Shown here in pieces: positions 27,805 to 41,235 of a DNA stretch of 64,000 bases. Where the stretch lies: the NCBI GenBank assembly GCA_038228545.1, contig JBBRPE010000002.1, positions 22,426-86,425 of the forward strand. Direction: 5' to 3'. The DNA is from Minisyncoccia bacterium. Lineage in GTDB: Bacteria > Patescibacteriota > Minisyncoccia > Phycocordibacterales > Phycocordibacteraceae. Each line of letters opens with the position of its first letter. The first letter of the stretch is position 1. The notes under the pieces are model-generated. The model was not told where the DNA came from, did not search any database, and saw nothing but the letters and a program-made list of their open reading frames with translations. Position numbers and translations under genes: made by a program.

Positions 27805-27840
27805 AAAACACCCCGCTTCTGCGGGGTGTTTTCATTTATT
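27805..27840. terminator. bidirectional terminator AAAACACCCCGC-TTCT-GCGGGGTGTTTT between hup and rarA
   Basis: Perfect 12-bp stem flanked by A- and T-tracts. Confidence 0.6.
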
Positions 27841-29005
27841 CCTTCGTTTTCTTAGTCGAACGCTTTGGAAAGTAGGAATGCTTCTGTATTTTCTCGGGAA
27901 GATAGCTTTCTTCGTCGTATTTCTTATAGCCTTTGCCGTAGCCCAAGTCTTTCATGAGTTTTGTGGGTGCGTTCCGTATATTCATAGGCACCTTGAGGTT
28001 TCCAAAAGCTTTCACGTCCTCTTGAGACTTACCGAGAGCATCCGTAACTGAACGGTCCTTTGCGGCGTTCGCAAGATACGCAACGCCATGTGCGAGATTG
28101 AGTGAGCATTCAGGATAGCCAATCGTTTCGCATGCGCGAAAGACCGCATTGGCGACAACGAGCGCAGTGGGCTGAGCGAGGCCCACATCTTCGGAAGCAA
28201 AGATAACCATACGTCGAGCAATGAAAAGTGGGTCTTCCCCAGCTTCTATCATACGAGCGAGGTAATACATGGCCGCATCCGGCTGCGAAGCACGCATGCT
28301 TTTTATAAACGCACTTATGATGTCGTAGTGCTCCTCTCCTTTTTTGTCGTAGCGCAGATGCGGCGACTCAAGCGATTTATTTAAATTCGTGACGGTAATC
28401 TTCTTTCCATACAGTGCGATAGCGCCCTCAAGCATGCCAAGTGCCTTACGTGCGTCGCCATTGGCGTAGCCCATAAGCCACTCAAACGCCCCGTCACCGA
28501 GCGTAACCTCAGCACGCGCTACGATGGCTCGTAGTGCTTCTTCCGAGAGTGGTTCAAGTACGAATACACGACTGCGAGAAAGGAGCGCAGGAATAACTTC
28601 AAACGATGGGTTCTCCGTCGTTGCTCCAATGAGCGTGAGTTCGCCGCTTTCTACATACGGCAACAGAAAATCTTGCTGTGCTTTATTAAAACGGTGTATC
28701 TCGTCGAGAAATAGGAGTTTCGGTTTAAATTCGAGCGTTTTGTTCTTTGAATCACCAAGTATTTTGCGTATATCGTCCTTACTTGCAGAGACTGCAGAGA
28801 GTTCAAAAAGTTCCGCATCTAACGCGCGAGCATAAATGCGAGCAATGGTCGTCTTTCCCGTCCCGGGCGGGCCCCAAAGAATAAACGAGAAAAGATGTTT
28901 CTTCTCTATGGCCACACGTAGCGGCTTCCCCTTCCCCACCAGATGCTCCTGTCCGACCACGTCGTCGATATTCGTAGGTCGTATGCGGTTAGCGAGAGGC
29001 TCCAT
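27836..29005 (-). CDS. rarA: replication-associated recombination protein A (AAA+ ATPase RarA/MgsA)
   Basis: Walker [10 protein letters not shown], Walker B LFLDEIHRF, MgsA C-terminal domains. Confidence 0.9.
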   Translation of the reverse strand: MEPLANRIRPTNIDDVVGQEHLVGKGKPLRVAIEKKHLFSFILWGPPGTGKTTIARIYARALDAELFELSAVSASKDDIRKILGDSKNKTLEFKPKLLFLDEIHRFNKAQQDFLLPYVESGELTLIGATTENPSFEVIPALLSRSRVFVLEPLSEEALRAIVARAEVTLGDGAFEWLMGYANGDARKALGMLEGAIALYGKKITVTNLNKSLESPHLRYDKKGEEHYDIISAFIKSMRASQPDAAMYYLARMIEAGEDPLFIARRMVIFASEDVGLAQPTALVVANAVFRACETIGYPECSLNLAHGVAYLANAAKDRSVTDALGKSQEDVKAFGNLKVPMNIRNAPTKLMKDLGYGKGYKKYDEESYLPEKIQKHSYFPKRSTKKTKE

Positions 29006-29060: not shown

Positions 29061-29279
29061 ATTGAAGTACAACCCTCCGCGTTCACCTAGAGGACGGATC
29101 CCGAGGAAACGCAGCAACGGTCCGAAACGACCGGTAAGTAGCAGGTCGCGCTCGAAGCGCCGGCGACGCTCGCGCATGAAGTCGGCGAGTGCCGTCATGC
29201 CATCGAGACGGGCTGCCAGTTCCATTTCATGGGCGACCTTGATGCGGAAGCGGGCGCGCTTGATTTCATTATTCATCAT
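29046..29279 (-). CDS. small ORF A (77 aa, Arg-rich), hypothetical; preceded by hairpin motif copy 1 and AAGGGA SD
   Basis: ORF + RBS + conserved leader motif. Confidence 0.45.
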   Translation of the reverse strand: MMNNEIKRARFRIKVAHEMELAARLDGMTALADFMRERRRRFERDLLLTGRFGPLLRFLGIRPLGERGGLYFNKRGL

Positions 29280-29284
29280 GTGAC

Positions 29285-29476
29285 CTATTCCCTTTCAGCC
29301 AAGGAACCATTTCCCGGGCTGAATAGAGAGAGCAAATCGTACTTGGTGTCGTACTTGCCCTGTTTGAGTTGTGCACGAGTCACCACTCGGTTTCGTTTCT
29401 TGGTCTTATCCGCGACGACCCGCGGACGCAGGTGCGGGCTCCGTAGAGCCTTCGCAATCGGATTACGTCGTTTCAT
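29285..29476 (-). CDS. small ORF B (63 aa, very basic: MKRRNPIAKALRSPHLRPR...), hypothetical nucleic-acid-binding-like; 3' end encodes hairpin motif copy 1
   Basis: AGGGAGAA SD 5 nt before ATG; overlaps ORF C by 14 nt (coupled). Confidence 0.4.
   Translation of the reverse strand: MKRRNPIAKALRSPHLRPRVVADKTKKRNRVVTRAQLKQGKYDTKYDLLSLFSPGNGSLAERE
29295..29322 (-). promoter_or_regulatory. leader hairpin motif copy 1 (minus-strand RNA: UUCAGCC-CGGGAAAUGGUUCCUU-GGCUGAA)
   Basis: Outer stem TCAGCC/GGCTGA + inner palindrome GGAA-ATGG-TTCC, ~15 nt before SD of ORF A. Confidence 0.55.
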
Positions 29477-29789
29477 TAGGTTCTCCCTGTTTGTGTCGTG
29501 CCTGGATGAAGTTCAAGAAGTCTTTCAGCTCGACTCGAGCCAGGTTTGCCTCGTCACGAATGTCTTTGGGGACATTCCGGAACCAGGTCGCGCGACGGTC
29601 GCCGACCCGCATGGCGACTGCCTTGAGCCTCGCCTCCATCTCCTGGAACTTCACCGAATCCGTGAGCGGGCTGTGCGAATCCTTGGCGTAGATGGCAACG
29701 AGCACGAGGTCCCCACTGATCTTCGCAGCACGCGCGAGGTCAAAGACCACCGCAACCGTCGTGACTTTATTTCCGTAGAAATCGTTCAT
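29463..29789 (-). CDS. small ORF C (108 aa), hypothetical
   Basis: AGGAGA SD; hairpin motif copy 2 just upstream. Confidence 0.5.
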   Translation of the reverse strand: MNDFYGNKVTTVAVVFDLARAAKISGDLVLVAIYAKDSHSPLTDSVKFQEMEARLKAVAMRVGDRRATWFRNVPKDIRDEANLARVELKDFLNFIQARHKQGEPNETT

Positions 29790-29809
29790 TACATTCTCCT
29801 AAACCTCTG

Positions 29810-29836
29810 TCAGCCAACGAACCATTCGTGGGCTGA
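29810..29836 (-). promoter_or_regulatory. leader hairpin motif copy 2 (TCAGCC-CACGAATGGTTCGTT-GGCTGA)
   Basis: Same outer stem; inner palindrome changed to CGAA-TGG-TTCG (compensatory). Confidence 0.55.
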
Positions 29837-29909
29837 ATAAAGTGGAGGACCGAAATCCTCCGAGTTTACAGATTCTGTTGCCAGGCTCTGCGAGCCCCGT
29901 CCGCCATCC

Positions 29910-30269
29910 CTAGGCCGCAGCGATGAATCGCGTTACCGCGATGACGTGACCATCCTTATCTCGAATGGATCCGTCCATCGGCCCCGTTCCCGGAGCGATG
30001 ACATCGGGGCGTCCCGACACGTGTCCGAGCACAAGGCTCGAAACAATGAAGAACGTATCCGGGATGGGCTCCGGAAGGTTCTCCACCACCCCCCAGACGG
30101 GCGACGCGTGAATCGGGATGCCGCCGTGTTCGGCACAGCCAGTGGCGATTTGCTCGCCAGGAGTGCTTGAGACTCGGACCACCGTCCCGCAGGGCGGGAC
30201 GGTGACATCTTCATTATCCAGCTTGCGGAACGTGATCGGATGCGGAGTGAGATTGCGCCAGTAGCTCAT
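29910..30269 (-). CDS. small ORF D (119 aa), hypothetical
   Basis: Start trimmed to MSYWRN (AAGGGG SD); hairpin motif copy 3 just upstream. Confidence 0.45.
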   Translation of the reverse strand: MSYWRNLTPHPITFRKLDNEDVTVPPCGTVVRVSSTPGEQIATGCAEHGGIPIHASPVWGVVENLPEPIPDTFFIVSSLVLGHVSGRPDVIAPGTGPMDGSIRDKDGHVIAVTRFIAAA

Positions 30270-30290
30270 ATTCAGTACCCCTTGTGCTTT

Positions 30291-30319
30291 TTGAGTCCAC
30301 GAACCATTCATGGACTCAA
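30291..30319 (-). promoter_or_regulatory. leader hairpin motif copy 3 (TTGAGTCCA-TGAATGGTTCG-TGGACTCAA)
   Basis: Outer stem fully replaced (GAGTCC/GGACTC) but still base-pairs; loop GAATGGTTCG conserved. Confidence 0.55.
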
Positions 30320-30604
30320 TGAAGCGGTGGACTTGAGAGGTCCACCGGAGGTGCCGGCCTTTTTGAGGCCGGCCTCCTGGAACTTTTCAGCCCAGAAGTT
30401 TTGCGCGTCACGTTCGCGACGCTCTTTGGCCCACTGCTCGCGCAGAGCCGGCGAGGGGTAAACCTTGGCGGTCACTCCTTCCGGCGCCTGCTCGCAGACG
30501 CGGGTACCGCACGGCTTGTGAGTCGTGAAGTGGTTGCTCCCGACCTGGAGCATCCATTGCGCGCCTGCGCGACGGCAGACGGTGCAGGTAATGATGTCGG
30601 TCAT
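30308..30604 (-). CDS. small ORF E (98 aa), Cys-rich zinc-ribbon-like (CTVCRR...CGTRVC)
   Basis: Start trimmed to MTDIITCTVC (GAAGGAAA SD); hairpin motif copy 4 upstream; 3' end contains two additional strong hairpins. Confidence 0.45.
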   Translation of the reverse strand: MTDIITCTVCRRAGAQWMLQVGSNHFTTHKPCGTRVCEQAPEGVTAKVYPSPALREQWAKERRERDAQNFWAEKFQEAGLKKAGTSGGPLKSTASLSP

Positions 30605-30621
30605 GAGAGTTTCCTTCTCTA

Positions 30622-30649
30622 TCAGCCAAGGAACCATTTCCCGGGCTGA
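30622..30649 (-). promoter_or_regulatory. leader hairpin motif copy 4 (identical core to copy 1)
   Basis: TTTATTCAGCCCGGGAAATGGTTCCTTGGCTGA, 20 nt before SD of ORF E. Confidence 0.55.
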
Positions 30650-30779
30650 ATAAAGGAGCTGACGTATTTGTCAGCTCTTGGTGCGAATTTGTGGCAATCG
30701 CGGCCTCCCTGCTTTTTCGCTCTAAGGAAATTGTGAGCAACCTGTGGAATGACCCCGCCACAGGACAAGGGGTGAATGG

Positions 30780-30947
30780 CTACACGCGCCAGCCGGGCTT
30801 ACCGCCGGAGGGCGTGGAGATCAGGCGGGCTTCAAACCCGCACTGACCCCCATCAACCTCCCGGCGCAAGCGGCCGGCGGGCGTGTAGCCCTTGCTCTGG
30901 AGGAGCAAGGTTGCGGCCTTCACCAGCTCGCGTTGACGGTCGGTCAT
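30780..30947 (-). CDS. small ORF F (55 aa, MTDRQRELVKAATLLL...), hypothetical
   Basis: GGGAGA SD 6 nt upstream; degenerate AGCCC-N-GGGCT hairpin upstream. Confidence 0.35.
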   Translation of the reverse strand: MTDRQRELVKAATLLLQSKGYTPAGRLRREVDGGQCGFEARLISTPSGGKPGWRV

Positions 30948-31346
30948 GACGTTTCTCCCAAAGCCCGGGATGGGCTCTTTTTTGATTCTTAAAGAACTGT
31001 CTGGAAACGTACGAGGTGCGCACCCTCGCTTACCCGTTTCCTTGTATGCACTCGTCCTGGTTTTACCGAACTTCGTCAAAACTTGACGTAAGTACCAGAT
31101 ACGATGCACATGGCGCGACGGACACCACCCCTCTTCCCCATCGGGGACTGGCCCGAGAGCAGGCTTCATTTTTTGGGAATTGCTTTCGCAATCCCTCTCC
31201 CAAGCGGAAACGGGCCGCAGGTACGGCATTAAGTGCGCCGGATGAATCCTGCTGAGTCCCCTTCCCGTTCAGGGAGGAATCACGAATTAACTTTTCACTA
31301 TGGAAATCTTTCAATGACCCTTGCCGTCAATGACGACTGACAAAAG

Positions 31347-31375
31347 CTGTATACACCCGTTCTCTTTTTTTGTCA
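31347..31375 (-). promoter_or_regulatory. candidate sigma-70 promoter for small-gene array (minus strand: TTGACA-17 nt-TATACA)
   Basis: Consensus -35, 17-nt spacer, 5/6 -10; points toward ORFs F-A. Confidence 0.4.
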
Positions 31376-31382
31376 AGACATT

Positions 31383-31468
31383 CTGACTTATTTAGTCAAT
31401 TTATAACAAAAATGCCTATAAAATAGGCTATTTTACTAGTATTAAACGACATTATCAGCTGACTAAAT
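31383..31468. promoter_or_regulatory. operator-like repeat set between divergent promoters: TGACT-TATTT-AGTCA inverted repeat (31383-31397), palindrome GCCTATAAAATAGGC (31413-31427), TGACTAAAT (31460-31468); further CTGAC(T) copies at 31336 and 31503
   Basis: Repeats read directly in ~70% AT spacer. Confidence 0.4.
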
Positions 31469-31489
31469 TTGAATTCGTGACAATAAACA

Positions 31490-31518
31490 TTGACAAATCT
31501 TTCTGACTTTGCTACGAT
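31490..31518 (+). promoter_or_regulatory. candidate sigma-70 promoter (TTGACA-17 nt-TACGAT) driving noncoding transcript
   Basis: Perfect -35, 17-nt spacer, 4/6 -10. Confidence 0.45.
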
Positions 31519-31524
31519 ATGACG

Positions 31525-31778
31525 GTCTGGCTAGCCCCTTTGGGACTGCCTAATTCATTGGAGGAATCCATGAGAATGCGGCTTCATTGAGGTCGTCAGT
31601 CGGACGACCGCCCGGGTGTAACCGGGCAAAAAAGTAGGAAAGGTCATTCATGACCAGAATTTTCTCTCCAGGCGACGGCGAGTAGCCGACCGAAGTGCCT
31701 GTCTTGCGACGTAAGATGACGTCGCGACGAAGCAACCAGTACCGGGGCCGGGGACACAACGTCTCCGGCCCTTTTTTA
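31525..31778 (+). ncRNA. candidate ~255-nt noncoding or leader RNA bounded by promoter and intrinsic terminator; contains two SD-preceded micro-ORFs (MRMRLH, MTRIFSPGDGE) and several internal hairpins; antisense partner region of TrmB-like gene 3' end
   Basis: Promoter 31490-31518, terminator 31745-31778, no plausible protein gene between. Confidence 0.35.
31745..31778 (+). terminator. intrinsic terminator GGGCCGGGGAC-ACAAC-GTCTCCGGCCC + TTTTTT
   Basis: 11-bp GC-rich stem + U6. Confidence 0.65.
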
Positions 31779-32537
31779 CGCCTCTTTTTTCTTAGGCTCT
31801 TCGGAGTTGAGCCACAAGAAGTCAAAAATACTTCGCATATTCTCGGCTATCTCCTCACTTTCTATAATGACGCCGAATGGTTCATTACTGTATGAACGAA
31901 TTACCGTTTTGTTATCGAAAATCGACAAATCGATGCTTAGAGCGAGCACATCCGGCGCGATGAATCGTCGTTCGGTGAGAGCATCGAACTCAACTCGCTC
32001 GAAATGAGGTTTATGGAGTTGGATACCTTTTGAATACACACCCTTACCCCTCCGTCGCTCCGAGTATTCATCGAGCTCTTTTTCTGAAAAAAGATTTGCG
32101 AGATGCTCGTATGAAAAGATGGTGTAAATTTTCTTAGACTTGGTCATGAGGGCCTCCTCCCTTGTCGCTGACACACCCTCCTTTCCCGGAAAAAAACGAA
32201 CAACGGGACGTTCTCCTGCCCCTTCAAACTGAAGGAGTAGCGCTGGAAGCAAAGTTTGCAACAAACTCTCATTCGTTCGTAAATTTTCTTTTTGCTTTTC
32301 GAGTACTCGCTTAAGAGCCTCCGGGGACTCCGGCGCGAAATACGTTTTCTTCCCCTCCTCATACGTACTCATCAGTCCTTTTTCCATAAGGGACTTTATC
32401 TGTACGTACGTCGTGGGACGTACTATCTTCGCGTGTTTAGCGAGCTGGTCGGCGGTCGCGCGACCGATTTCAATTGATGCAAGATACACTCGGGCCTCTT
32501 TTTCAGATAGACCAAAATCCTGAAGTTCTTTTAGCAT
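31776..32537 (-). CDS. TrmB-family transcriptional regulator (N-terminal wHTH + C-terminal effector-like domain)
   Basis: MLKELQDFGLSEKEARVYLASIEIGRATADQLAKHAKIVRPTTYVQIKSLMEKGL matches TrmB HTH pattern; start trimmed to MLKELQ. Confidence 0.7.
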   Translation of the reverse strand: MLKELQDFGLSEKEARVYLASIEIGRATADQLAKHAKIVRPTTYVQIKSLMEKGLMSTYEEGKKTYFAPESPEALKRVLEKQKENLRTNESLLQTLLPALLLQFEGAGERPVVRFFPGKEGVSATREEALMTKSKKIYTIFSYEHLANLFSEKELDEYSERRRGKGVYSKGIQLHKPHFERVEFDALTERRFIAPDVLALSIDLSIFDNKTVIRSYSNEPFGVIIESEEIAENMRSIFDFLWLNSEEPKKKEA

Positions 32538-32557
32538 GTACACAGAATAGCATTCGG

Positions 32558-32710
32558 TGGTGCGGGATAGGAGAAGTGTCCAGCGAAGACGCAGGCACGC
32601 ATCGGTCACAGATATTTTCCTGCTGGAAAATTCCGCGACCCCGCCTCAGCGCCGACGCGCTTCCGGCTTCCGATTCTCCTATCCCAGCCATTACACACGC
32701 TTCGCGTGTT
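32558..32710. repeat. tRNA-linked conserved element, copy 1 (downstream of tRNA-Gly-UCC on minus strand): partial direct copy of the tRNA 3' end (32558-32574), ~70-nt conserved core (32595-32666), inverted copy of the tRNA T-loop/3' end (32667-32685), hairpin ACACGC-TTC-GCGTGT (32694-32708)
   Basis: Compared by eye with copies at 34905-35250 and 35942-36154; core about 90% identical to copy 3. Confidence 0.55.
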
Positions 32711-32715
32711 ACATG

Positions 32716-32786
32716 TGCGGGATAGGAGAATCGGACTCCTGCTCTCAGTTTGGAAAACTGATGTTCTACCATTAAACTAATCCCGC
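32716..32786 (-). tRNA. tRNA-Gly (anticodon UCC)
   Basis: Manual fold: GCGGGAT/ATCCCGC acceptor, D-arm GTTT-AATGGTA-GAAC, anticodon loop TTTCCAA, T-arm AGGAG-TCCGATT-CTCCT, discriminator A; no encoded CCA. Confidence 0.8.
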
Positions 32787-32854
32787 TGTAGGCCAGAGAA
32801 TACCATATCTTGGCCCTCTCTGTCTTTTTTCGAGCTTCACGGTAGCATTGCCGT

Positions 32855-34072
32855 ATGCGCGAGCACATTGAACATCTCCTGGCCGCCCTCGGTGCCGTCG
32901 GCTTCGCACTTTTCGTTTCCTATTTCAATACGGGCCCCGTACACGTCGCTCCCCTTGAGCGTACGACGCCAACACTAGTGCCTATTTCGCCTGGTGCAGC
33001 AACATACGCGGTGAACACATTCCCATCACTCGCTCTTTCCACATCAACGATTGACCAGATGTTTCCGTCTGGTACTTCTGCACCGAGCGAAAAGAAAACC
33101 AAAACGCCAGCACCGGTAGCTACTCCGGCACCTGTCCCTGTAAAACCTGCCGCTCCGGTGGTTAGCGTAAAACCTAAGCCTGTTCCTAGTGTTGCCACAC
33201 CTACGGTCGCTACGACGACCACTCCCCCAGTAACCTCACCAGTCCTATCCGGACTCGGTAGTGCAGTGGTCAATATTCTATGTACGTCTCGAACAGGAAC
33301 GACACAAGGTCTGTCTGGCTCAGGTACAATCATCGACTCACGCGGCGTAATACTCACTGTTGCTCACGTCGCGCAAGCAGAGCTCCTTGAGCAGGCGTAC
33401 GGACCGGAAACGATGTCGTGTGTTGTTCGTACGGGAAGTCCGGCACACACCGCATACAAAGCAAAAGTTATGTACCTTTCAGAAAATTGGCTAAGAAATA
33501 ATTCAACGACACTGATTAGCTCACACCCGACAGGAAACGGTTCAGATGATTTTGCCCTTCTGGCGATTACTGCATCGGCAACAGGTAGGCCACTCCCTTC
33601 TTCCTTTCCTTCAGTCCCACTTGCAAACATCGTGCCAAACGCCGGTAACACCGTTCAAATTGCTGGCTACGGCGCTGAGCACCTTACCAATACACAAGTG
33701 TTTACATCGCTCACACAAACTCTTATCCAGGGCGCTGTGTCCAAAGTACACAGCTTCCGCGGCGGGACGGCAGACGCACTCTCAGTTGATGGCGGGGACT
33801 CGGCACAGGAAGGTGCGTCCGGAGGCGCAGTAGCAACTTCAAACGGCGCGCTCACCGGCGTAATTACCGGAAGCGAAATTACGAGTACCAGCAGTACCCC
33901 GCTCGTATGGGCTATAACTGTTGACTACATTCGCCGTACGTTCACCGATGCTACGGGTAAAGATTTTGATTCATTCTACCAAGGAAGCATTCCTGACCTC
34001 GTGAATAGTTACGCACCAACCGCTCAGACGCTGGGCACATTCCTCGGTAAAGCTATTGGGCTACAGAGTTAA
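32855..34072 (+). CDS. membrane-anchored trypsin-like serine protease with Pro/Thr-rich linker
   Basis: N-terminal TM; His (TVAHV), Asp (DFALLAI), Ser (GASGGAV) triad contexts. Confidence 0.65.
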   Translation: MREHIEHLLAALGAVGFALFVSYFNTGPVHVAPLERTTPTLVPISPGAATYAVNTFPSLALSTSTIDQMFPSGTSAPSEKKTKTPAPVATPAPVPVKPAAPVVSVKPKPVPSVATPTVATTTTPPVTSPVLSGLGSAVVNILCTSRTGTTQGLSGSGTIIDSRGVILTVAHVAQAELLEQAYGPETMSCVVRTGSPAHTAYKAKVMYLSENWLRNNSTTLISSHPTGNGSDDFALLAITASATGRPLPSSFPSVPLANIVPNAGNTVQIAGYGAEHLTNTQVFTSLTQTLIQGAVSKVHSFRGGTADALSVDGGDSAQEGASGGAVATSNGALTGVITGSEITSTSSTPLVWAITVDYIRRTFTDATGKDFDSFYQGSIPDLVNSYAPTAQTLGTFLGKAIGLQS

Positions 34073-34834
34073 CTCGGCTGCAATCAAGCAATGGTCTGAG
34101 CCATGTCGCTCGGTCTCGACTGAAACACCTTCCACGACAACATCAGCGGACACCAAGATGTGATCGAGTTGGGAACGCGAGAACGGATGTGTTGTAAGCG
34201 AACGGAGCGGATTCTTCATACCGGCCTCGGCAAACTTTTCCTCGATAATATCTCGCTCGGGATACCAAGGCATCGCTTCGGTAAGCGTAGAGCCGAGTAG
34301 CCAATTCAGAACCTTAAGCGGCGGGTATTCAATAATATTAAAATCTCCGCATACAACTGAAGGTACGCCCGGCTGCATGTGCCCCACGACTGCATCGAAT
34401 TCTTTCTGTCTGTTCCCGGGCCCCCACAGCGTGAAGTGAACTGAGAAAATGCGCACGACTTCAGTTCCTCTTCGTATATCTGCGTACACGGCACCGCGTT
34501 CAGTAACGAATGACCACTTGAAAAGAGACATGAACGTTACGAATGCACGAGTATGCGCAGGAAACGGAAAATCGAGAAACTGAAGCGTGCCGGTATGTTC
34601 AAATGGAATCTTCGAAAGTAATGCAACGTAGTTATATTCGCTTCTGCCTTTTCCAAAAAGTCTGAGGACATCAACATGATACGTAAGATGAAACGGCATC
34701 TTCTTAAGTTCTTCGAGAAGCGCAGGTGTTACCTCCTGAAGACACAACACGTCAAAATCTGCCTCGCGAATATACTTCGCAACCTGCGACATCTTCTTAT
34801 TGAAACAGTACACGTTCCAAGACTTGATAATCAT
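34061..34834 (-). CDS. endonuclease/exonuclease/phosphatase (EEP) family protein
   Basis: NVYCFN..., LCLQEV, GDFN, SDHCLI motifs. Confidence 0.75.
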   Translation of the reverse strand: MIIKSWNVYCFNKKMSQVAKYIREADFDVLCLQEVTPALLEELKKMPFHLTYHVDVLRLFGKGRSEYNYVALLSKIPFEHTGTLQFLDFPFPAHTRAFVTFMSLFKWSFVTERGAVYADIRRGTEVVRIFSVHFTLWGPGNRQKEFDAVVGHMQPGVPSVVCGDFNIIEYPPLKVLNWLLGSTLTEAMPWYPERDIIEEKFAEAGMKNPLRSLTTHPFSRSQLDHILVSADVVVEGVSVETERHGSDHCLIAAELTL

Positions 34835-34904
34835 TTCGGAAGTATACGGGTCGATGATGAAGACTTGAAATACGACACTTAGTTAGAAGCCCCATCGTCC
34901 GGAT

Positions 34905-35250
34905 GGCTCCTATTTTTTGCAAATCATTGTCGGGGTGCGCGCCATTGTTTCGTTGCGAGTGTAACGAGTTAGGAAACAACTAGTGCCTTAGGGGTGGAGA
35001 TTGAACTCCGTCATCCGGATGTCTCCCAGACATCCGATTACATGCTGATTCTTTTCTGCAAATCATTGTCGGGGTGCGGAGAAGCTTCGCGCATTGGTCA
35101 CGCATCACTAAGTCGTTTCGCTCCTAAGTAGCGCGACCCCGTCTCGCCGTTTTCGGGAGGACCCGAAAACATGCTCCGGCTTTCAATTCTCCGGAGCAGG
35201 CCAGAGCAGTCTGGCCTGCTCACCACTCCTTCACTCACTTCGTTCATTCA
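34905..35250. repeat. tRNA-Pro trailer repeats: two direct copies of TGCAAATCATTGTCGGGGTGCG (34913-34940, 35058-35085; antisense of tRNA-Pro acceptor 3' strand + trailer), a partial tRNA-Pro 3'-half copy (34990-35022), and a family-type core (35095-35250) with hairpin TTTTCGGG-AGGA-CCCGAAAA and inverted T-arm copy TTCAATTCTCCGGAG
   Basis: Direct sequence comparison with tRNA-Pro gene at 35252-35322 and with Gly-linked elements. Confidence 0.5.
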
Positions 35251-35251
35251 G

Positions 35252-35322
35252 TCGGGGTGCGGAGAATTGAACTCCGTCATCTACTTCCCAAAAGTAGCGT
35301 ACTACCGGTATACGACACCCCG
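35252..35322 (-). tRNA. tRNA-Pro (anticodon UGG)
   Basis: Manual fold: CGGGGTG/CACCCCG acceptor, anticodon stem CTACT/AGTAG loop TTTGGGA (G37), T-arm CGGAG-TTCAATT-CTCCG, discriminator A; no CCA. Confidence 0.7.
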
Positions 35323-35376
35323 TTACGTCTTGTGGGCGTTCCTTGCGGAAACGCCCGTCAGAGCATCCTAGCAGAT

Positions 35377-35772
35377 TTATAGAATTTGGGGGAGATAGCG
35401 TACTCGGGCCTTCCCATCCCTCGTTCGTAGCCACACCAGGACCGCATCCACCTGCCACTCCCCTTCCCAGTCTGTGTTGGCCACATACCACTCGCTTGTA
35501 CGAGCCACTCGCCTAATCTTCGCCTCATGAAGGTTTACAGACGGGTCATAGCGGTCGTTGTTGTCAGCGTCATCAGGAAACTGCACGCAAAGTATTGATT
35601 TAACCTCGACGAAATGAAGGCAATCTCGTTTTCGAGCGACAATATCAATCTCACCCGTCTTACGTGCGACATTCTTCGCGACTATTTTCATTCCCTGTCG
35701 TCGCAGGTATTCGGCAGCAACTTTTTCGCCTAGATTTCCGATGTCCTTTGTTGAAAAAAGGGAGAGGTCCAC
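35377..35772 (-). CDS. YraN-family (UPF0102) endonuclease-like protein
   Basis: AAEYLRRQGMKIVAKNVARKTGEIDIVARKRDCLHFVEVKS matches UPF0102 core. Confidence 0.75.
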   Translation of the reverse strand: MDLSLFSTKDIGNLGEKVAAEYLRRQGMKIVAKNVARKTGEIDIVARKRDCLHFVEVKSILCVQFPDDADNNDRYDPSVNLHEAKIRRVARTSEWYVANTDWEGEWQVDAVLVWLRTRDGKARVRYLPQIL

Positions 35773-35941
35773 GGCTTTAAAGTATAGCTCCGAAATACAC
35801 TCTTTCTCACCGACATTAATGAAAACTACCTAAAGGTCGCCTGTCCTTTATCCCCAGTGTTAACAGGTTTGTCCACTGTTTGAAAATACAAAATGGCCTA
35901 GATACAACGTTTTGTATTTTCACTTTTCTGCATGAGTGTAT

Positions 35942-36154
35942 AGGTGCGGATGGGGAGAATGGAGGGGAGAAGTGTCCTGAGATTATTCAGGCACGCATCG
36001 GTCACAGATATTTCCCTGCTGGGAAATTCCGCGACCCCGCCTCGGCGCCGTCGCGCTTGCGGCTTCCGATTATCCACGCACGGCGTCCCACGCCGTGCTC
36101 TATCCGCCCGTCGACAATGCAAAAACGCCCCAGAGGGGCGTTTTTGCTCGACGG
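35942..36154. repeat. tRNA-linked conserved element, copy 3 (downstream of tRNA-Gly-GCC): partial direct tRNA 3'-end copy GGTGCGGATGGGGAGAA (35942-35958), conserved core (35990-36070), inverted partial CTCTATCCGCC (36097-36107), long hairpin CGTCGACAATGCAAAAACGCCCC-AGA-GGGGCGTTTTTGCTCGACG (36108-36152)
   Basis: Aligned by eye to copy 1; stem TTTTCC/GGAAAA of copy 1 becomes TTTCCC/GGGAAA here (compensatory). Confidence 0.55.
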
Positions 36155-36225
36155 TGCGGATAGGGAGAATCGGACTCCCGCCTCGTCCTTGGCAAGGACG
36201 CGTTCTACCACTAAACCATATCCGC
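36155..36225 (-). tRNA. tRNA-Gly (anticodon GCC)
   Basis: Manual fold: GCGGATA/TATCCGC acceptor, anticodon loop TTGCCAA, T-arm GGGAG-TCCGATT-CTCCC, discriminator A; no CCA. Confidence 0.8.
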
Positions 36226-36394: not shown

Positions 36395-37855
36395 ATGCAC
36401 TTCTCCATTCCGCTTGAGGTACGCACGGTTACCGATGCCCTGAGAAAGGCCGGCTACGAGGCATATTTGGTCGGTGGCTGCGTCCGTGACCTACTTATAG
36501 GACGAACGCCTAAGGATTGGGATGTAACCACGAACGCGAAGCCAGGGGAGATTCAGGCCATCTTTCCCGAATCCTTTTATGAAAATGATTTTGGAACCGT
36601 TGGTGTAAAGACCGATTCAGAAGATTCAACACTTTCAATCATCGAGGTAACTCCCTATCGAACCGAGACAGGCTACTCAGACAAGCGTCGTCCAGACTCC
36701 GTCGCATTTGGAAATAGCCTCACGGACGATCTGGCCCGGAGAGACTTCACCATTAACGCGATTGCCCTTGATGATTCTAAAGGACAACTTCTTGACCCGT
36801 ATAAAGGACAGGAGGACATTACGGCTAGGGTACTCCGCACCGTTGGCTCCCCTACTGAGCGTTTTGAAGAAGACGCGCTTCGCCTTATGCGTGCAGTCCG
36901 TCTTGTCGCCGAGCTCGGATTTGCCCTTGATGCTGACACTGCAGCTGCAATTAAAGAAAAGGGTCCTAATCTACGATACATTTCACGTGAAAGGATTCGC
37001 GACGAGTTTGTACGTATATTGAATTCAAAAGAGCCTATGATGGCCCTGGTTCTCTGCCAACAGCTTGGAATTCTTGAATATATAGCCCCTGAGCTCACTC
37101 AGGGTATCGGAATCGACCAAAACCAAGCTCACAGTTATGACGTTTTTGGACACCTCATGCGTTCCCTACAACACGCCGCAGATAAGGACTGGGACTTTGA
37201 CACGCGCCTTGCTGCTGTATTTCACGATGTCGCCAAGCCCGAGACACGTCGCTGGTCTGACGAAAAGAAAGATTGGACCTTCCACGGTCACGAGGTTGTA
37301 GGAGCCCGTATGACAAGAAAGGCTTTGGAGGGGCTCAAGTTTCCACGTGAAACTATAGAGCGAGTGAGTAAACTGGTGCGCTGGCACATGTTCTTCTCAG
37401 ACCCTGATCAGATAACCCTTTCGGCGGTTCGACGCATGATTCGGAATGTGGGAGAGGAAAACATTAACGACCTGTTGAATCTGCGTATTTGCGACCGAAT
37501 TGGAACCGGTAGGCCTAAGGAGCAGCCGTTTCGCTTCCGTAAGTACAAAGCCATGGTGGACGAGGCACTTCGCGACCCGATATCAGTTGGTATGCTCAAA
37601 ACTGATGGAAATCGGCTTATGAACGTGTTTCATGTGGCACCCGGCCCACGCATTGGAAATGTACTTAATGCCCTTCTCGAGGAGGTTCTGGAGAGCCCGA
37701 AGTTGAATACGGAGTCTTATTTAGATACCCGAACACATTCCTTGCTAGAACTCAGCGACGACGAATTAAAGAAATTGGGAGATTCAGGTAAGAAGAAGAA
37801 AGAAGCTGAGGAGGAAAAGGAAATAAAGGAAATAATGAGGAAACACCACGTATAG
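36395..37855 (+). CDS. cca: CCA-adding tRNA nucleotidyltransferase with HD domain
   Basis: GGCVRD...DWDV polymerase-beta head, HD motif (HDVAKP); start trimmed to MHFSIPLE to clear tRNA-Arg. Confidence 0.85.
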   Translation: MHFSIPLEVRTVTDALRKAGYEAYLVGGCVRDLLIGRTPKDWDVTTNAKPGEIQAIFPESFYENDFGTVGVKTDSEDSTLSIIEVTPYRTETGYSDKRRPDSVAFGNSLTDDLARRDFTINAIALDDSKGQLLDPYKGQEDITARVLRTVGSPTERFEEDALRLMRAVRLVAELGFALDADTAAAIKEKGPNLRYISRERIRDEFVRILNSKEPMMALVLCQQLGILEYIAPELTQGIGIDQNQAHSYDVFGHLMRSLQHAADKDWDFDTRLAAVFHDVAKPETRRWSDEKKDWTFHGHEVVGARMTRKALEGLKFPRETIERVSKLVRWHMFFSDPDQITLSAVRRMIRNVGEENINDLLNLRICDRIGTGRPKEQPFRFRKYKAMVDEALRDPISVGMLKTDGNRLMNVFHVAPGPRIGNVLNALLEEVLESPKLNTESYLDTRTHSLLELSDDELKKLGDSGKKKKEAEEEKEIKEIMRKHHV

Positions 37856-38325: not shown

Positions 38326-39120
38326 CTAGAGAGTAATCGAGACAGGGCAGTGGTCTGAGCCCATAGCCTCAGGATGAATTTCGGCAGTCTTTACATGCTT
38401 TGCAAGCTTGTTGGAGACAAATATGTAATCAATACGCCACCCCACATTACGTTCACGTGCGCCACCGAAGTTACTCCACCACGTATATAAGCCGTTTCCT
38501 TCCTTAAACAGGCGAAGTGTATCTTTGAAACCGCCAGCAATTATCTGATCAATACCTTCGCGTTCTTCGCTCGTAAAGCCTTTCTTTCCTTCGTTTTCTT
38601 TGGGGCGCGCAAGGTCTTCCGGAAGGTGAGCTACATTTAAGTCACCGCAAAAAATGACGGGTTTTTCTTCCTCAAGACGCTTCATGTATTCGAGAAATGC
38701 AGGGTCCCAATGCTTGTGGCGAAGATCGAGACGTGACAAATCATCTTTTGCATTTGGTGTATATACCGACACTACATAGAAATCATGCATGTCTGCTGCG
38801 ATAATACGCCCTTCTTCGTTCGGGTCTCCGTAGCTATCGTCCGACAAACCCCATTTCTTTGCGATATCTTCCGGCATGCCGAAGAGCACGTCCTCTGGCG
38901 TCATCTTGCTAAAAATGGCCGTGCCACTGTAGCCCTTACGAGCCTTTGAGGAGCTCCAGAATTCCTCATAGTCAGGAAGATCGAGAGGGGACTGCTCCTG
39001 CTCTGCCTTTGTTTCCTGCAGGCAGAGAATATCGGGCTTATATTTCTTCATAAACGGCATAAAGAGGTCTTTTTTGTGGACCGCCCGAATACCGTTTACA
39101 TTCCATGACACGATACGCAT
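38326..39120 (-). CDS. xth: exodeoxyribonuclease III
   Basis: MRIVSWNVNGIRA..., LCLQET, GDLNVAH, SDHCPV. Confidence 0.9.
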   Translation of the reverse strand: MRIVSWNVNGIRAVHKKDLFMPFMKKYKPDILCLQETKAEQEQSPLDLPDYEEFWSSSKARKGYSGTAIFSKMTPEDVLFGMPEDIAKKWGLSDDSYGDPNEEGRIIAADMHDFYVVSVYTPNAKDDLSRLDLRHKHWDPAFLEYMKRLEEEKPVIFCGDLNVAHLPEDLARPKENEGKKGFTSEEREGIDQIIAGGFKDTLRLFKEGNGLYTWWSNFGGARERNVGWRIDYIFVSNKLAKHVKTAEIHPEAMGSDHCPVSITL

Positions 39121-39141: not shown

Positions 39142-40059
39142 CTATTGCTGACGCGAGTGGAAACGTTTATGTACTTCACGTAGATGCGCGTCGGTAACGT
39201 GCGTGTAAATCTGGGTGGTATTGATAGAGGCATGGCCCAGGAGAGCCTGAACACTGCGTATATCAGCACCATTTGAAAGGAGGTCGGTAGCGAATACGTG
39301 ACGAAGCGTATGAGGGCTTACCTTATTGGTTATTCCGGCTTGTGCAGCGTACTTCTTAATGTGACGCTGGATATCACGTGGTGTGATGCGATGCGGTTTG
39401 GTATCGCGGCCATCTACAAAAAGTGCTTCCTCCATGTCCTTACGGGCCTTCAAATAGGCCGTAACAGAGTCCTTGGCAGCAGGCGAGAGAAATACGACCC
39501 GTACTTTCTCGCCTTTTCCGCGTACCGAAAGGTCGTCGCGAGTGAGATCGATGTCTGAATTGAGTGCACAGAGTTCCGCCACACGAAGCCCTGTTGAGAA
39601 AAGGAGCTCGAGAATGGCGGTATCACGCAGTGCTACTTGCTGTTTGCGCGGCTCATCACTTTTCTTAGCTACGTCTTCCGGTGCTTTCATGAGACGTTCG
39701 AGCTCCGCGGAAGTGATGATATCAATTTGGCGCTCCGGAAGCTTGGCGAGCTCAATTCGTTCGGGATTCAGGCCCTCTACACCGCGTTTACGTAAATACT
39801 TAAGGAAAGCGCGTAGGGCAATGAGGTAGTAATTCTGTGTGCGGCGCTTCATGGTCGCGTTTCCCGTACCTGGCTGGCGGTTAAGCCAAAGGCGGAATTC
39901 ACGGATTTTGTCCTCTGAGATGTCTCCAACGCCCTGAATCTTCATTTGTTCAAAGAAAACCGATAGGTAATGGTCGTAATTTTCGACTGTTTTTACCGCA
40001 CGACCACGCTCAATTTCCGTATATTCGAGGAATTCACGCTTCATCTGTACCGCGTCCAT
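39142..40059 (-). CDS. tyrosine site-specific recombinase, XerC/XerD-like
   Basis: N-terminal SAM-like core-binding domain; catalytic R..HxxR..Y context (TLRHVFATDLL...GHASINTTQIYTHV). Confidence 0.8.
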   Translation of the reverse strand: MDAVQMKREFLEYTEIERGRAVKTVENYDHYLSVFFEQMKIQGVGDISEDKIREFRLWLNRQPGTGNATMKRRTQNYYLIALRAFLKYLRKRGVEGLNPERIELAKLPERQIDIITSAELERLMKAPEDVAKKSDEPRKQQVALRDTAILELLFSTGLRVAELCALNSDIDLTRDDLSVRGKGEKVRVVFLSPAAKDSVTAYLKARKDMEEALFVDGRDTKPHRITPRDIQRHIKKYAAQAGITNKVSPHTLRHVFATDLLSNGADIRSVQALLGHASINTTQIYTHVTDAHLREVHKRFHSRQQ

Positions 40060-40722: not shown

Positions 40723-41235
40723 ATGCCTGTAATCAAGCATCCAGCGCAACGCGTTGGGGTTTTCATAGATACGCAAAACCTCTACCACAGCGCTAAACAC
40801 CTCTATAAATCACGCGTTAACTTCCAGAAGGTCCTCGAAGAGGCCGTGGGAGACCGCATTCTTGTACGCGCCATTGCCTATGTCATATCGACGGAAAGTG
40901 GTGACGAGACAGCATTCTTTGAGGCTCTGACCAAAATCGGTATCGAAACCAAGGTAAAAGGTCTTCAGATATTCTCTGACGGCGCCAAGAAAGCCGATTG
41001 GGACGTTGGTATCGCTATTGATGCCGTTAAACTTTCACCGAAACTCGATACGGTCATCATTGCGTCGGGCGATGGCGACTTCATCCCGCTCATCGAATAC
41101 CTCGATATGCACGGAGTCCAGGTGGAGGTCATTTCTTTCGGAAAGTCATCTTCAGCGAAACTCAAAGAGGCTGCACACGCATTCACTGATATGTGCGACG
41201 ACCCAAAGAAGTTTCTCATCGGTAGTCGCGGATAA
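40723..41235 (+). CDS. NYN-domain (LabA-like) protein
   Basis: VGVFIDTQNLYHS...IIASGDGDFIPLIEYL pattern of NYN/LabA nucleases. Confidence 0.7.
   Translation: MPVIKHPAQRVGVFIDTQNLYHSAKHLYKSRVNFQKVLEEAVGDRILVRAIAYVISTESGDETAFFEALTKIGIETKVKGLQIFSDGAKKADWDVGIAIDAVKLSPKLDTVIIASGDGDFIPLIEYLDMHGVQVEVISFGKSSSAKLKEAAHAFTDMCDDPKKFLIGSRG

Follow-up and report, generated by a model that had tools for sequence, protein, structure and literature searches.

Downstream of three tRNA genes in a 64,000-nt stretch of a Minisyncoccia bacterium contig (JBBRPE010000002.1; here called the window, meaning the whole stretch analysed) lie three paralogous, structured, non-coding elements. Comparative analysis places them in a family that is apparently previously undescribed and restricted to Patescibacteria, also referred to as the candidate phyla radiation (CPR). 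Members follow tRNA genes, carry arms that copy the cognate tRNA, occur in tandem arrays, occupy sites that are empty in relatives, exchange core modules and can bring a terminator of their own. The reading we tentatively prefer is that these elements, about 130–250 nt long and found across Patescibacteria, are protein-less, non-autonomous insertion cassettes that recombine into the 3′ ends of tRNA genes.

Three paralogous elements follow tRNA genes in the window

The window contains four minus-strand tRNA genes (ARAGORN; Rfam scores of 55–69 bits), three of which, tRNA-Gly(UCC), tRNA-Pro(UGG) and tRNA-Gly(GCC), have an element of 130–250 nt on their 3′ side. Read along the tRNA strand, each element begins with a spacer hairpin, after which come the tRNA segment from T-loop to 3′ end in inverted copy, a conserved core and the same segment in direct copy. 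A preliminary description of the sequence had proposed this layout at the three loci, and it is borne out by ARAGORN, Rfam and repeat analysis. The core that it claimed to be common to the copies is likewise confirmed: the motif CGCGACCCCGYCTC occurs three times in the window when 0.03 occurrences are expected, and a covariance model built from other copies recovers the window copies with E = 2e-45, 1e-39 and 2e-11.

We write the unit as D-t-I-c, where D is the tRNA segment from T-loop to 3′ end, t is a spacer or terminator hairpin, I is the inverted D, often split by a hairpin called P0, and c is the core, made of helices P2, P3 and usually P4. A second, displaced D follows the unit. The parts of the three copies are listed below.

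Copy 1
32715–32786, minus strand: tRNA-Gly(UCC) (ARAGORN; Rfam 68.9 bits), no encoded CCA
32686–32714, minus strand: spacer hairpin (t), acacGCGAAGCgtgt, identified by repeat analysis, U-tract absent
32669–32685, minus strand: inverted arm (I), gggataggagaatcgga, complement of the T-loop, the T-stem 3′ strand and the acceptor 3′ strand
32576–32668, minus strand: core (c), with P2 and its GGA/GA internal loop, P3 and its conserved G·U, the junction GAUGCGUG, P4 and GACAC
32558–32575, minus strand: direct arm (second D), ttctcctatcccgcaCCA, the native tRNA 3′ end, displaced

Copy 2
35251–35322, minus strand: tRNA-Pro(UGG) (ARAGORN and Rfam)
35194–35250, minus strand: spacer, with a hairpin at 35194–35221
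35182–35193, minus strand: inverted arm, cggagaattgaa, complement of the T-loop ttcaatt and the T-stem
35084–35181, minus strand: core of a divergent subtype, with P2 and P3 long and P4 nearly absent
35069–35083, minus strand: direct arm, ttctccgcaccccga
34913–35068, minus strand: second small insertion or remnant at the Pro locus, of a different kind, behind the tRNA-Pro cassette

Copy 3
36155–36225 (alternative call start 36153), minus strand: tRNA-Gly(GCC) (ARAGORN and Rfam)
36108–36154, minus strand: spacer, with a cassette-borne terminator hairpin at 36119–36147
36065–36107, minus strand: inverted arm, interrupted by P0
35972–36064, minus strand: core (covariance-model match of 127 bits)
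35943–35971, minus strand: direct arm, ttctcccctcc followed by attctccccatccgcacc, decayed and in part duplicated

Copy 1 is a compact example: its inverted arm is complementary at 12 of 12 positions to 32564–32575, its minimum free energy (MFE) fold has z = -5.55, and it matches the covariance model with 144 bits. A repeat block of 115 nt at 88% identity contains its core and that of copy 3. The divergent core of copy 2 still matches at 43 bits (E = 1.6e-11), and its junction reads CCAAUG, covarying with the Pro T-loop. In copy 3 the inverted arm is broken into gcggatagag (the acceptor complement), P0 (36079–36097, loop UGGGA) and cgtggataatcgga, a degenerate complement of T-stem and T-loop; this split design recurs at four of the compared loci outside the window, which are labelled by L-numbers (L023, L018, L038 and L120). 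Complementary flanks that differ as the cognate tRNAs differ had been proposed for all three copies. The arms do track the cognate T-loops, but the direct arm of copy 3 is degenerate and the Pro copy is closed by a helix of just 7 bp.

The insertion behind the Pro cassette is bounded by 27-nt direct repeats (96% identity) that comprise the last 9 nt of the tRNA and 18 nt of flank, and it holds a UGGGA-loop hairpin and a sense-strand fragment of the tRNA-Pro T-arm.

The family is found in Patescibacteria and is linked to tRNA genes

Copies were sought with a core pattern of two blocks, first in genomes (one per species) and then in metagenomes. The genome scan gave 22 true matches, every one in a metagenome-assembled genome (MAG) of Patescibacteria/CPR, labelled Saccharibacteria, Paceibacteria/Paceibacterota, Minisyncoccia or ‘Patescibacteria group’. 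Another 17 true copies came from the metagenome scan, and the remaining pattern matches were chance occurrences in high-GC genomes. With a covariance model built from 13 compact copies and a cut-off of E < 1e-7, the family comprises 47 copies, all on CPR-type contigs.

Linkage was counted over the 40 copies that have at least 150 nt of upstream sequence. A tRNA gene on the same strand lies within 400 nt upstream of the element in 35 of these and within 120 nt in 31, the four copies at 120–400 nt being second members of tandem arrays; the element is always oriented along the tRNA strand. The preliminary description had suggested looking for copies at non-tRNA sites and for absence from relatives, and this check leaves the tRNA linkage standing. 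Fifteen isoacceptors are represented (three each for Gly, Arg and Ser, two for Pro, and one each for Met, Ala, Glu and Trp), and weaker matches also involve His and Val tRNAs. Among the five copies for which no tRNA was detected, three have a tRNA-end fragment upstream (L016, L028 and L139); the others are L070 and L083. The L139 locus was considered as a chimeric tRNA, which would prove crossover in the T-loop, and was rejected as holding only a tRNA-end fragment.

At L016 and L133, a T-arm and an acceptor 3′ end lie upstream of the element, yet ARAGORN calls no tRNA. The tRNA at these loci may be of the intron-containing type reported for Patescibacteria (PMC13011429). The group I introns in that report are located in the anticodon loop; a link between them and the present elements was rejected, since anticodon-loop introns are unrelated to them. 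At L137 (5441–6720), two different tRNA-Ser(GCU) genes flank a cassette and about 0.9 kb with one open reading frame (ORF), and the second of these genes may be part of an inserted island.

Searches beyond cellular genomes and among known RNAs returned no relatives. A scan of viral contigs gave two matches only, both chance occurrences in high-GC coding sequence, and blastn against GenBank phages and PLSDB plasmids gave none. The preliminary description could match the element to no known RNA family, and a cmscan of the window against Rfam 15 at E ≤ 5 agrees, yielding the four tRNAs and spurious sub-threshold matches only; the families covered include tmRNA, tRNA-like families, group I introns, self-cleaving ribozymes and ωRNA/HEARO. 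We found no description of the element in the literature.

The arms copy the T-loop-to-3′-end segment of the cognate tRNA

Complementarity between the inverted arm and the tRNA spans positions 55 to 73, and several copies show partial complementarity to the 3′ trailer of the gene as well. D in some copies extends into the trailer and terminator. Agreement between arm and cognate tRNA includes T-loop nucleotides 55, 57 and 59–60, such that the inverted arm tracks even unusual T-loops (aatcgga for tccgatt in Gly, aattgaa for ttcaatt in Pro, attcgaa for ttcgaat and agtcgaa for ttcgact). Pair 17:257 of the alignment is AU in 35 sequences, UA in 6, CG in 1 and GC in 1. The direct arm begins at T-loop position 56, with the junction CGAU representing T-loop 56–59, and its first two bases follow T-loop 59–60 (TT, AT or CT). 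In L040 (tRNA-His), a copy that lacks P4, the direct arm is an uninterrupted CCGATTCCCTG, which indicates that P4 is an insertion at 59/60 and that P2–P3 sits at the tip of the helix formed by I and D. The length of the duplicated target varies between 7 and 55 nt, and in several copies the arms pair over no more than 7 bp.

In both tRNA-Gly genes of the window the T-loop reads UCCGAUU, position 55 being C (32729–32735 and 36168–36174, minus strand). The variant is also present in L120, L031, L119 and L149, and the canonical UUCGAUU in relatives such as L124 and L023. Position 55 is almost universally U (Ψ55) in tRNAs. The C55 variant is itself copied in the inverted arm of the element.

P0 is present in many copies, often with the loop UGGGA, and lies within the inverted arm at or near the boundary between acceptor and T-stem. 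Conserved features of the core are the GGA/GA internal loop of P2 and the base of P3, GGUCG/UGACC, and the junctions read AAAG, GG and GAUGCGUG; the junction nucleotides and the GGA/GA loop are highly conserved across subtypes. The apical loops are mostly GNCG in P2 and AGCA in P3, and no GNRA or UNCG tetraloop was seen among the short apical loops tallied.

A second core type, a CUGUAAG-loop hairpin after GUAC, was observed at L026 (2160–2390), L076 (150–330) and L089 (7060–7172). It is bracketed by similar tRNA-derived inverted and direct arms and stands in tandem with the main type, and the arm architecture is thus common to unrelated cores. A generic finder for pairs of inverted and direct arms was too noisy for use.

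The fold covaries and belongs to the tRNA-sense strand

Covariation was counted over 45 distinct sequences in an alignment fitted to the model. Standard pairs fill 93.4% of cells, compared with 35–47% when the 3′ partners are slid by 1–3 columns. Both sides change in 33 of 41 pairs, and none of 500 shuffles reached any of the observed measures. P2, P3 and P4 all covary, whereas covariation in the arm helix P1 is expected because both arms copy the tRNA. RNAalifold applied to a plain MAFFT alignment of 13 copies returns the same helices, with compensatory changes in 26 of 41 pairs. The window itself supplies an example that the preliminary description had already picked out and that proves real: the hairpin TTTTCC-TGCT-GGAAAA of copy 1 becomes TTTCCC-TGCT-GGGAAA in copy 3.

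One pair of P3 is G·U in 44 of the 45 sequences and another is GC in 19 and GU in 18. These pairs mark the tRNA-sense strand, since the opposite strand turns both G·U pairs into A·C mismatches; the antisense strand scores about 100 bits lower with the model. These data strongly support a real, strand-specific fold.

The single strand D-t-I-c also folds well with DNA parameters (z = -8.5 and -12.9). The sense strand of the element zones (44 copies) contains GCGAAGC 21 times and its reverse complement twice, about eight times background; for CAGCAG the corresponding counts are 30 and 2. The hairpins GCGAAAGC, GCGCAAGC and GCUUCGGC, tested as GNRA and UUCG representatives, are absent from the same zones. 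GCGAAGC is reportedly a classic hyperstable DNA mini-hairpin, described by Hirao et al. Its excess is suggestive of a DNA rather than an RNA form.

Occupied and empty sites, displaced ends and cassette-borne terminators

Orthologous loci were located through homologues of a neighbouring protein of the endonuclease/exonuclease/phosphatase (EEP) family and have in common the gene order YraN, tRNA-Pro, EEP, trypsin-like protease, tRNA-Gly(UCC). Occupancy of the three tRNA sites is as follows.

Window: Gly(GCC) occupied; Pro(UGG) occupied; Gly(UCC) occupied
L120: Gly(GCC) occupied; Pro(UGG) empty; Gly(UCC) occupied
L124: Gly(GCC) empty; Pro(UGG) without a family copy, a gene island following the tRNA; Gly(UCC) empty
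L149: Gly(GCC) empty; Pro(UGG) empty; Gly(UCC) empty

The element is thus dispensable, as it is absent from orthologous sites in relatives. Where it is present, the arrangement resembles that of an insertion. In L120, a perfect 55-nt direct repeat spanning the T-loop end, the tRNA end, the trailer and the whole terminator encloses 165 nt made up of inverted arm, P0 and core, with five nucleotides, cgtta, between terminator and inverted arm. At copy 3 of the window, the terminator beside the working tRNA (36119–36147) differs from the resident terminator at 35881–35922, which lies downstream of the element and is followed by a conserved ‘ggggataaaggacag’ region; in the empty L149 site this same region stands just 3′ of the terminator. 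The native tRNA-Gly(UCC) end in L149 encodes CCA. In the window, CCA is on the right-hand copy of this end and the working left copy has none, and the CCA-less 3′ end of the window gene was probably supplied by the cassette. The duplication, the cassette-borne terminator and the displaced CCA together indicate that the arriving unit is D-t-I-c, which gives the tRNA a new 3′ end and displaces the old one.

Units also accumulate. Tandem arrays are present at L052, L095 and L106, and arrays mixed with the CUGUAAG-loop core type at L026, L076 and L089. Strong intrinsic terminators separate tRNA and element in L018, L120 and copy 3 of the window. A promoter/terminator consensus scan found no promoter signal and was uninformative.

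Two further observations concern duplication and insertion at tRNA genes. At L031 (4925–5010, element orientation), the last 36 nt of tRNA-Pro, starting in the anticodon stem, are repeated after a 45-nt spacer; this anticodon-side duplication is of a different kind, like those left by classical integrases. In the window, the block of about 3.5 kb at 29229–32609, between copy 1 and RarA (27836–29005), encodes a TrmB-like regulator and five ORFs without a Pfam match. It looks like a gene island at tRNA-Gly(UCC), because RarA directly follows that tRNA in L120, L124 and L149; no further tRNA fragment was found at the far end of the block.

Signs of horizontal movement and modular exchange

The core of copy 1 is identical at 90 of 95 positions to that of a copy at tRNA-Arg(CCG) in a MAG labelled Paceibacterota and, more generally, the nearest neighbours of a core match neither its tRNA type nor its genome. 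At Gly(UCC), the window and L120 have 100% identical tRNA genes, spacers and inverted arms and a P4 with one mismatch. They do not share a related P2–P3 module, and identity between their flanking EEP proteins is only 64%.

A folded, target-mimicking strand as the proposed recombination substrate

On the reading we prefer, the unit would recombine with a chromosomal tRNA gene within D. The cassette would then supply the working 3′ end of the tRNA, the resident end would be pushed downstream to become the direct copy, and repeated events would build tandem arrays. On the tRNA-sense strand only, pairing of I with D would produce a hairpin or dumbbell with the terminator at one end and the conserved core at the other, and its stem would reproduce the double-stranded tRNA-gene segment. 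The recombination substrate would accordingly be a folded single strand, most likely of DNA, by analogy with CTXφ attP(+) and integron attC, and a host recombinase acting in trans would presumably carry out the exchange. In those two systems a single strand is exchanged by a tyrosine recombinase that belongs to the host or acts in trans, and integration is then completed by replication. The observed order (site, remainder of the element, inverted copy, loop, site) is the one that a mechanism of this type predicts.

Several findings weigh against this proposal. No excised circle or other free form was observed, and the viral, phage and plasmid collections contain no match. The neighbourhoods of 39 copies (±2.5 kb) contain neither an integrase nor a transposase gene, and their recurrent proteins are syntenic housekeeping proteins only. 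For integration of the RecA type, 17–20 nt is a short stretch of homology. Nor does the proposal account for the fit of both arms to each new tRNA when a nearly identical core occurs at 15 isoacceptors; templated correction in the hairpin, guide-directed insertion with a long target duplication, and snap-back at terminator and T-arm palindromes are possibilities for this re-making of arms. In L128, where two P2–P3 modules stand in tandem with no inverted arm, and in the first copy of L052, the core is well kept in the absence of a usable inverted arm, so that the closing helix is not required for core preservation. Very conserved unpaired nucleotides (AAAG, GAUGCGUG and those of the GGA/GA loop) would be just as characteristic of a functional RNA, as would the conserved G·U, and the covariation counts come from an alignment that was fitted to the model.

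The main alternative, rather improbable in our judgement and not necessarily exclusive of mobility, is that the element is a structured non-coding RNA, transcribed with the tRNA or just after it, closed by a tRNA-like acceptor/T-stem helix and processed by tRNA enzymes. Such an RNA could act through P2–P3, for instance through a bound protein, or as antisense or decoy RNA directed at the cognate tRNA, with the signs of mobility arising from gene conversion and transfer of whole loci. The strong covariation, the strand-specific conserved G·U, the highly conserved junctions and GGA/GA loop across subtypes and the invariable placement on the tRNA strand would all suit an RNA; so would the position of P0, where the tRNA body leaves the acceptor/T-stem stack, and the copy 1 spacer, which has no U-tract and makes read-through plausible. 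An RNA function, however, gives no reason for arms that match the neighbouring tRNA and the trailer of its gene, the element is dispensable, a strong terminator often intervenes (L018, L120 and copy 3), and a promoter signal was not found. The discriminator is paired, as is the CCA in the MFE fold of copy 1, leaving no free NCCA end; the short apical loops tallied include no GNRA or UNCG, and there is no Rfam match. Of the suggestions made in the preliminary description, co-transcribed structured RNA keeps its fold and strand asymmetry and loses ground to the frequent terminators and the dispensability, whereas a tRNA-minihelix mimic, of which a 12-bp acceptor/T-stem stack with an unpaired discriminator-CCA end would be expected, is disfavoured: pairing continues past the discriminator in L120, the CCA is paired in copy 1, the arms of several copies are partly complementary to the trailer, and some well-conserved copies have no closing helix. 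The remaining suggestion, a miniature mobilized element or attachment (att)-site arm, is the best supported, by occupied and empty sites, arrays, cassette-owned terminators, displaced CCA and 95% identical cores at different tRNAs; its qualifier ‘integrase-mobilized’ finds no linked integrase in the 39 neighbourhoods.

Three further explanations deserve consideration. It is unlikely, to our mind, that the inverted arm is a programmable guide, whereby a structured DNA or RNA strand with no protein gene would pair with the T-loop-to-3′-end segment of a tRNA gene and guide itself into that site, using host enzymes only; the direct arms would then be a long target duplication, and a change of guide would retarget the core to any tRNA. 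A little less likely still, the elements could be scars, that is, att-arm remnants of integrase-encoding islands or prophages that lost their interior, like cis-mobilizable elements (CIMEs). As in classical tRNA-integrating elements, the element lies between direct repeats of the tRNA 3′ end and an intact tRNA is regenerated. Gene islands are also present at the same tRNA sites (in L028, in L124 and, in the window, downstream of copy 1), and L031 has its plain 36-nt tRNA-Pro duplication. But no copy is attached to an integrase or to any recurrent gene, the viral, phage and plasmid collections hold no match, a double-stranded att arm gives no reason for covariation, strand-specific G·U or an inverted target copy, and one core with arms for 15 isoacceptors is not expected of a fixed integrase/att pair. 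A purely local origin we regard as very unlikely. Replication snap-back at the terminator and T-arm quasi-palindromes would generate a tandem inversion duplication, with the core captured at the second junction and nothing moving as a unit. This would account directly for arms that always match the neighbouring tRNA and trailer, for symmetry centres of D-t-I-(core)-D at the terminator loop and in the T-loop, and for the perfect 55-nt duplication of L120. It offers no source for a foreign conserved core, or for its 95% identity between MAGs labelled as different lineages; the terminator borne by copy 3 differs from the resident one, and the cgtta between terminator and inverted arm in L120 does not fit simple snap-back.

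Relation to known systems

The closest parallels in mode of action are elements with folded att sites (CTXφ-type integrative mobile elements exploiting Xer, or IMEX, and integron attC) together with CIMEs, which lack an integrase. No dif target, attC boxes, linked integrase, parent element or Rfam family was found for the cassettes. In CTXφ-type IMEX, two inverted target copies on one strand anneal into a duplex mimic of the chromosomal site, the integrated order is site, element, inverted copy, loop, site, and no element-encoded recombinase is needed. A duplex mimic is found here too, in the I:D helix and the DNA-parameter fold. CTXφ, however, involves a single-stranded replicative form, dif, XerCD and phage genomes, whereas the present target is a tRNA gene, the element is about 0.2 kb and non-coding, its ‘loop’ is a multi-hairpin core, it has arms for 15 tRNAs, and it is known from sequence only. 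The attC sites of integrons and of clusters of attC sites lacking integron-integrases (CALIN) resemble the cassettes in their imperfect single-strand hairpins, strand-specific function, tandem arrays at a fixed site and variable terminal structure. They differ in that the cassettes lack R/L boxes, the conserved AAC/GTT and cassette ORFs (no search was aimed at IntI), and in that the stem here copies a tRNA and the apical part is conserved, the reverse of attC. An attC identity was rejected because the aligned consensus has neither R′′/L′′-L′/R′ boxes nor AAC/GTT.

The elements resemble tRNA-integrating islands and CIMEs in their insertion point within the 3′ portion of a tRNA gene, in the repair of the tRNA from a copy that the element carries, in the direct repeats of the tRNA end and in tandem accretion; unlike them, they add an inverted target copy and a covarying core, and one core serves many tRNAs. 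Direct repeats of the tRNA 3′ segment bracket the element and an intact tRNA is restored, as for elements of the tyrosine-integrase type that cross over in the T-loop, but no element-encoded integrase lies by the att site (±2.5 kb, 39 copies). Repeats resembling those of CIMEs are present; an autonomous parent was not found in viral contigs, phages, plasmids or the 39 neighbourhoods. A conserved scaffold with variable target-matching segments, retargeted by changing those segments, is also the design of IS110 bridge RNA, of TnpB/IscB ωRNA and of group II intron exon-binding sequences; here, there is no associated protein gene, the ‘guide’ is paired intramolecularly, the target is duplicated and Rfam shows no homology. 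Finally, the tRNA-like domain of transfer-messenger RNA, viral tRNA-like structures and MALAT1-associated small cytoplasmic RNA (mascRNA) have a coaxial helix like acceptor and T-stem, sometimes a CCA end and a position beside tRNA genes. By contrast, the elements have no T-loop, a paired discriminator (with CCA in one copy), arms that include trailer and no Rfam match.

Other identities were tried and rejected. A TnpB/IscB ωRNA or the homing guide of a CRISPR-associated transposon does not fit, there being no associated genes and a paired ‘guide’. IS200/IS605 derivatives, including palindrome-associated transposable elements (PATE) and TnpB ωRNA, have subterminal hairpins and insert 3′ of a fixed tetra- or pentanucleotide with no duplication of the target; here, target duplications of 7–55 nt are present and TnpA/TnpB genes are absent nearby. 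A miniature inverted-repeat transposable element derived from a DDE transposon would have fixed terminal inverted repeats and a short target-site duplication of fixed length, and was discarded, as the arms vary with the host tRNA and the duplication varies in length. A group I intron or small self-splicing ribozyme was set aside with no Rfam match, a position outside an intact tRNA and no terminal G before the direct arm; hammerhead, hepatitis delta virus-like, twister-type and hairpin ribozymes have no consensus in the sequence and no Rfam match.

Taken as insertion cassettes, the family would be a new variant of tRNA-targeting, non-autonomous integrative elements, and a role of the arms as guides, or proof that the element is a tRNA-linked class of RNA, would make it new in kind.

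Genes near the tRNA cluster

A Xer-like tyrosine recombinase (39142–40059, minus strand) lies about 3 kb from the tRNA cluster of the window and outside the cassettes; we note its position only and claim no tie. Within 5 kb of the cluster are two paralogous EEP-family nucleases (34061–34834 and 38326–39120, both minus strand), one of which has a Pfam match to the ‘endonuclease-reverse transcriptase’ subfamily, and also a NYN-domain RNase and a CCA-adding enzyme (listed coordinates 40723–41235 and 36400–37855, both plus strand). At least the first EEP gene and the CCA enzyme are syntenic in relatives, and no link to the cassettes is shown. The L028 island, between tRNA and element, encodes a ribbon-helix-helix protein and otherwise unknown proteins, with no recombinase.

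Implications

If the cassette reading is correct, Patescibacteria carry widespread miniature mobile cassettes that rewrite many tRNA 3′ ends, apparently by means of a folded, target-mimicking strand. To our knowledge, CTXφ-type phages and integrons are the only systems in which such a principle has been described. The cassettes would operate in hosts with tiny genomes and with no linked recombinase, and the puzzle they pose is how arms for at least 15 tRNAs are templated on one near-identical core. Were the element instead an RNA, it would define a new CPR-specific class of structured RNA with very strong covariation, and were the inverted arm a guide, a new class of guide-directed mobile element that uses host enzymes only. 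In practical terms, the cassettes confuse the annotation of tRNA ends, create integration hot spots and mark horizontal exchange among CPR lineages.

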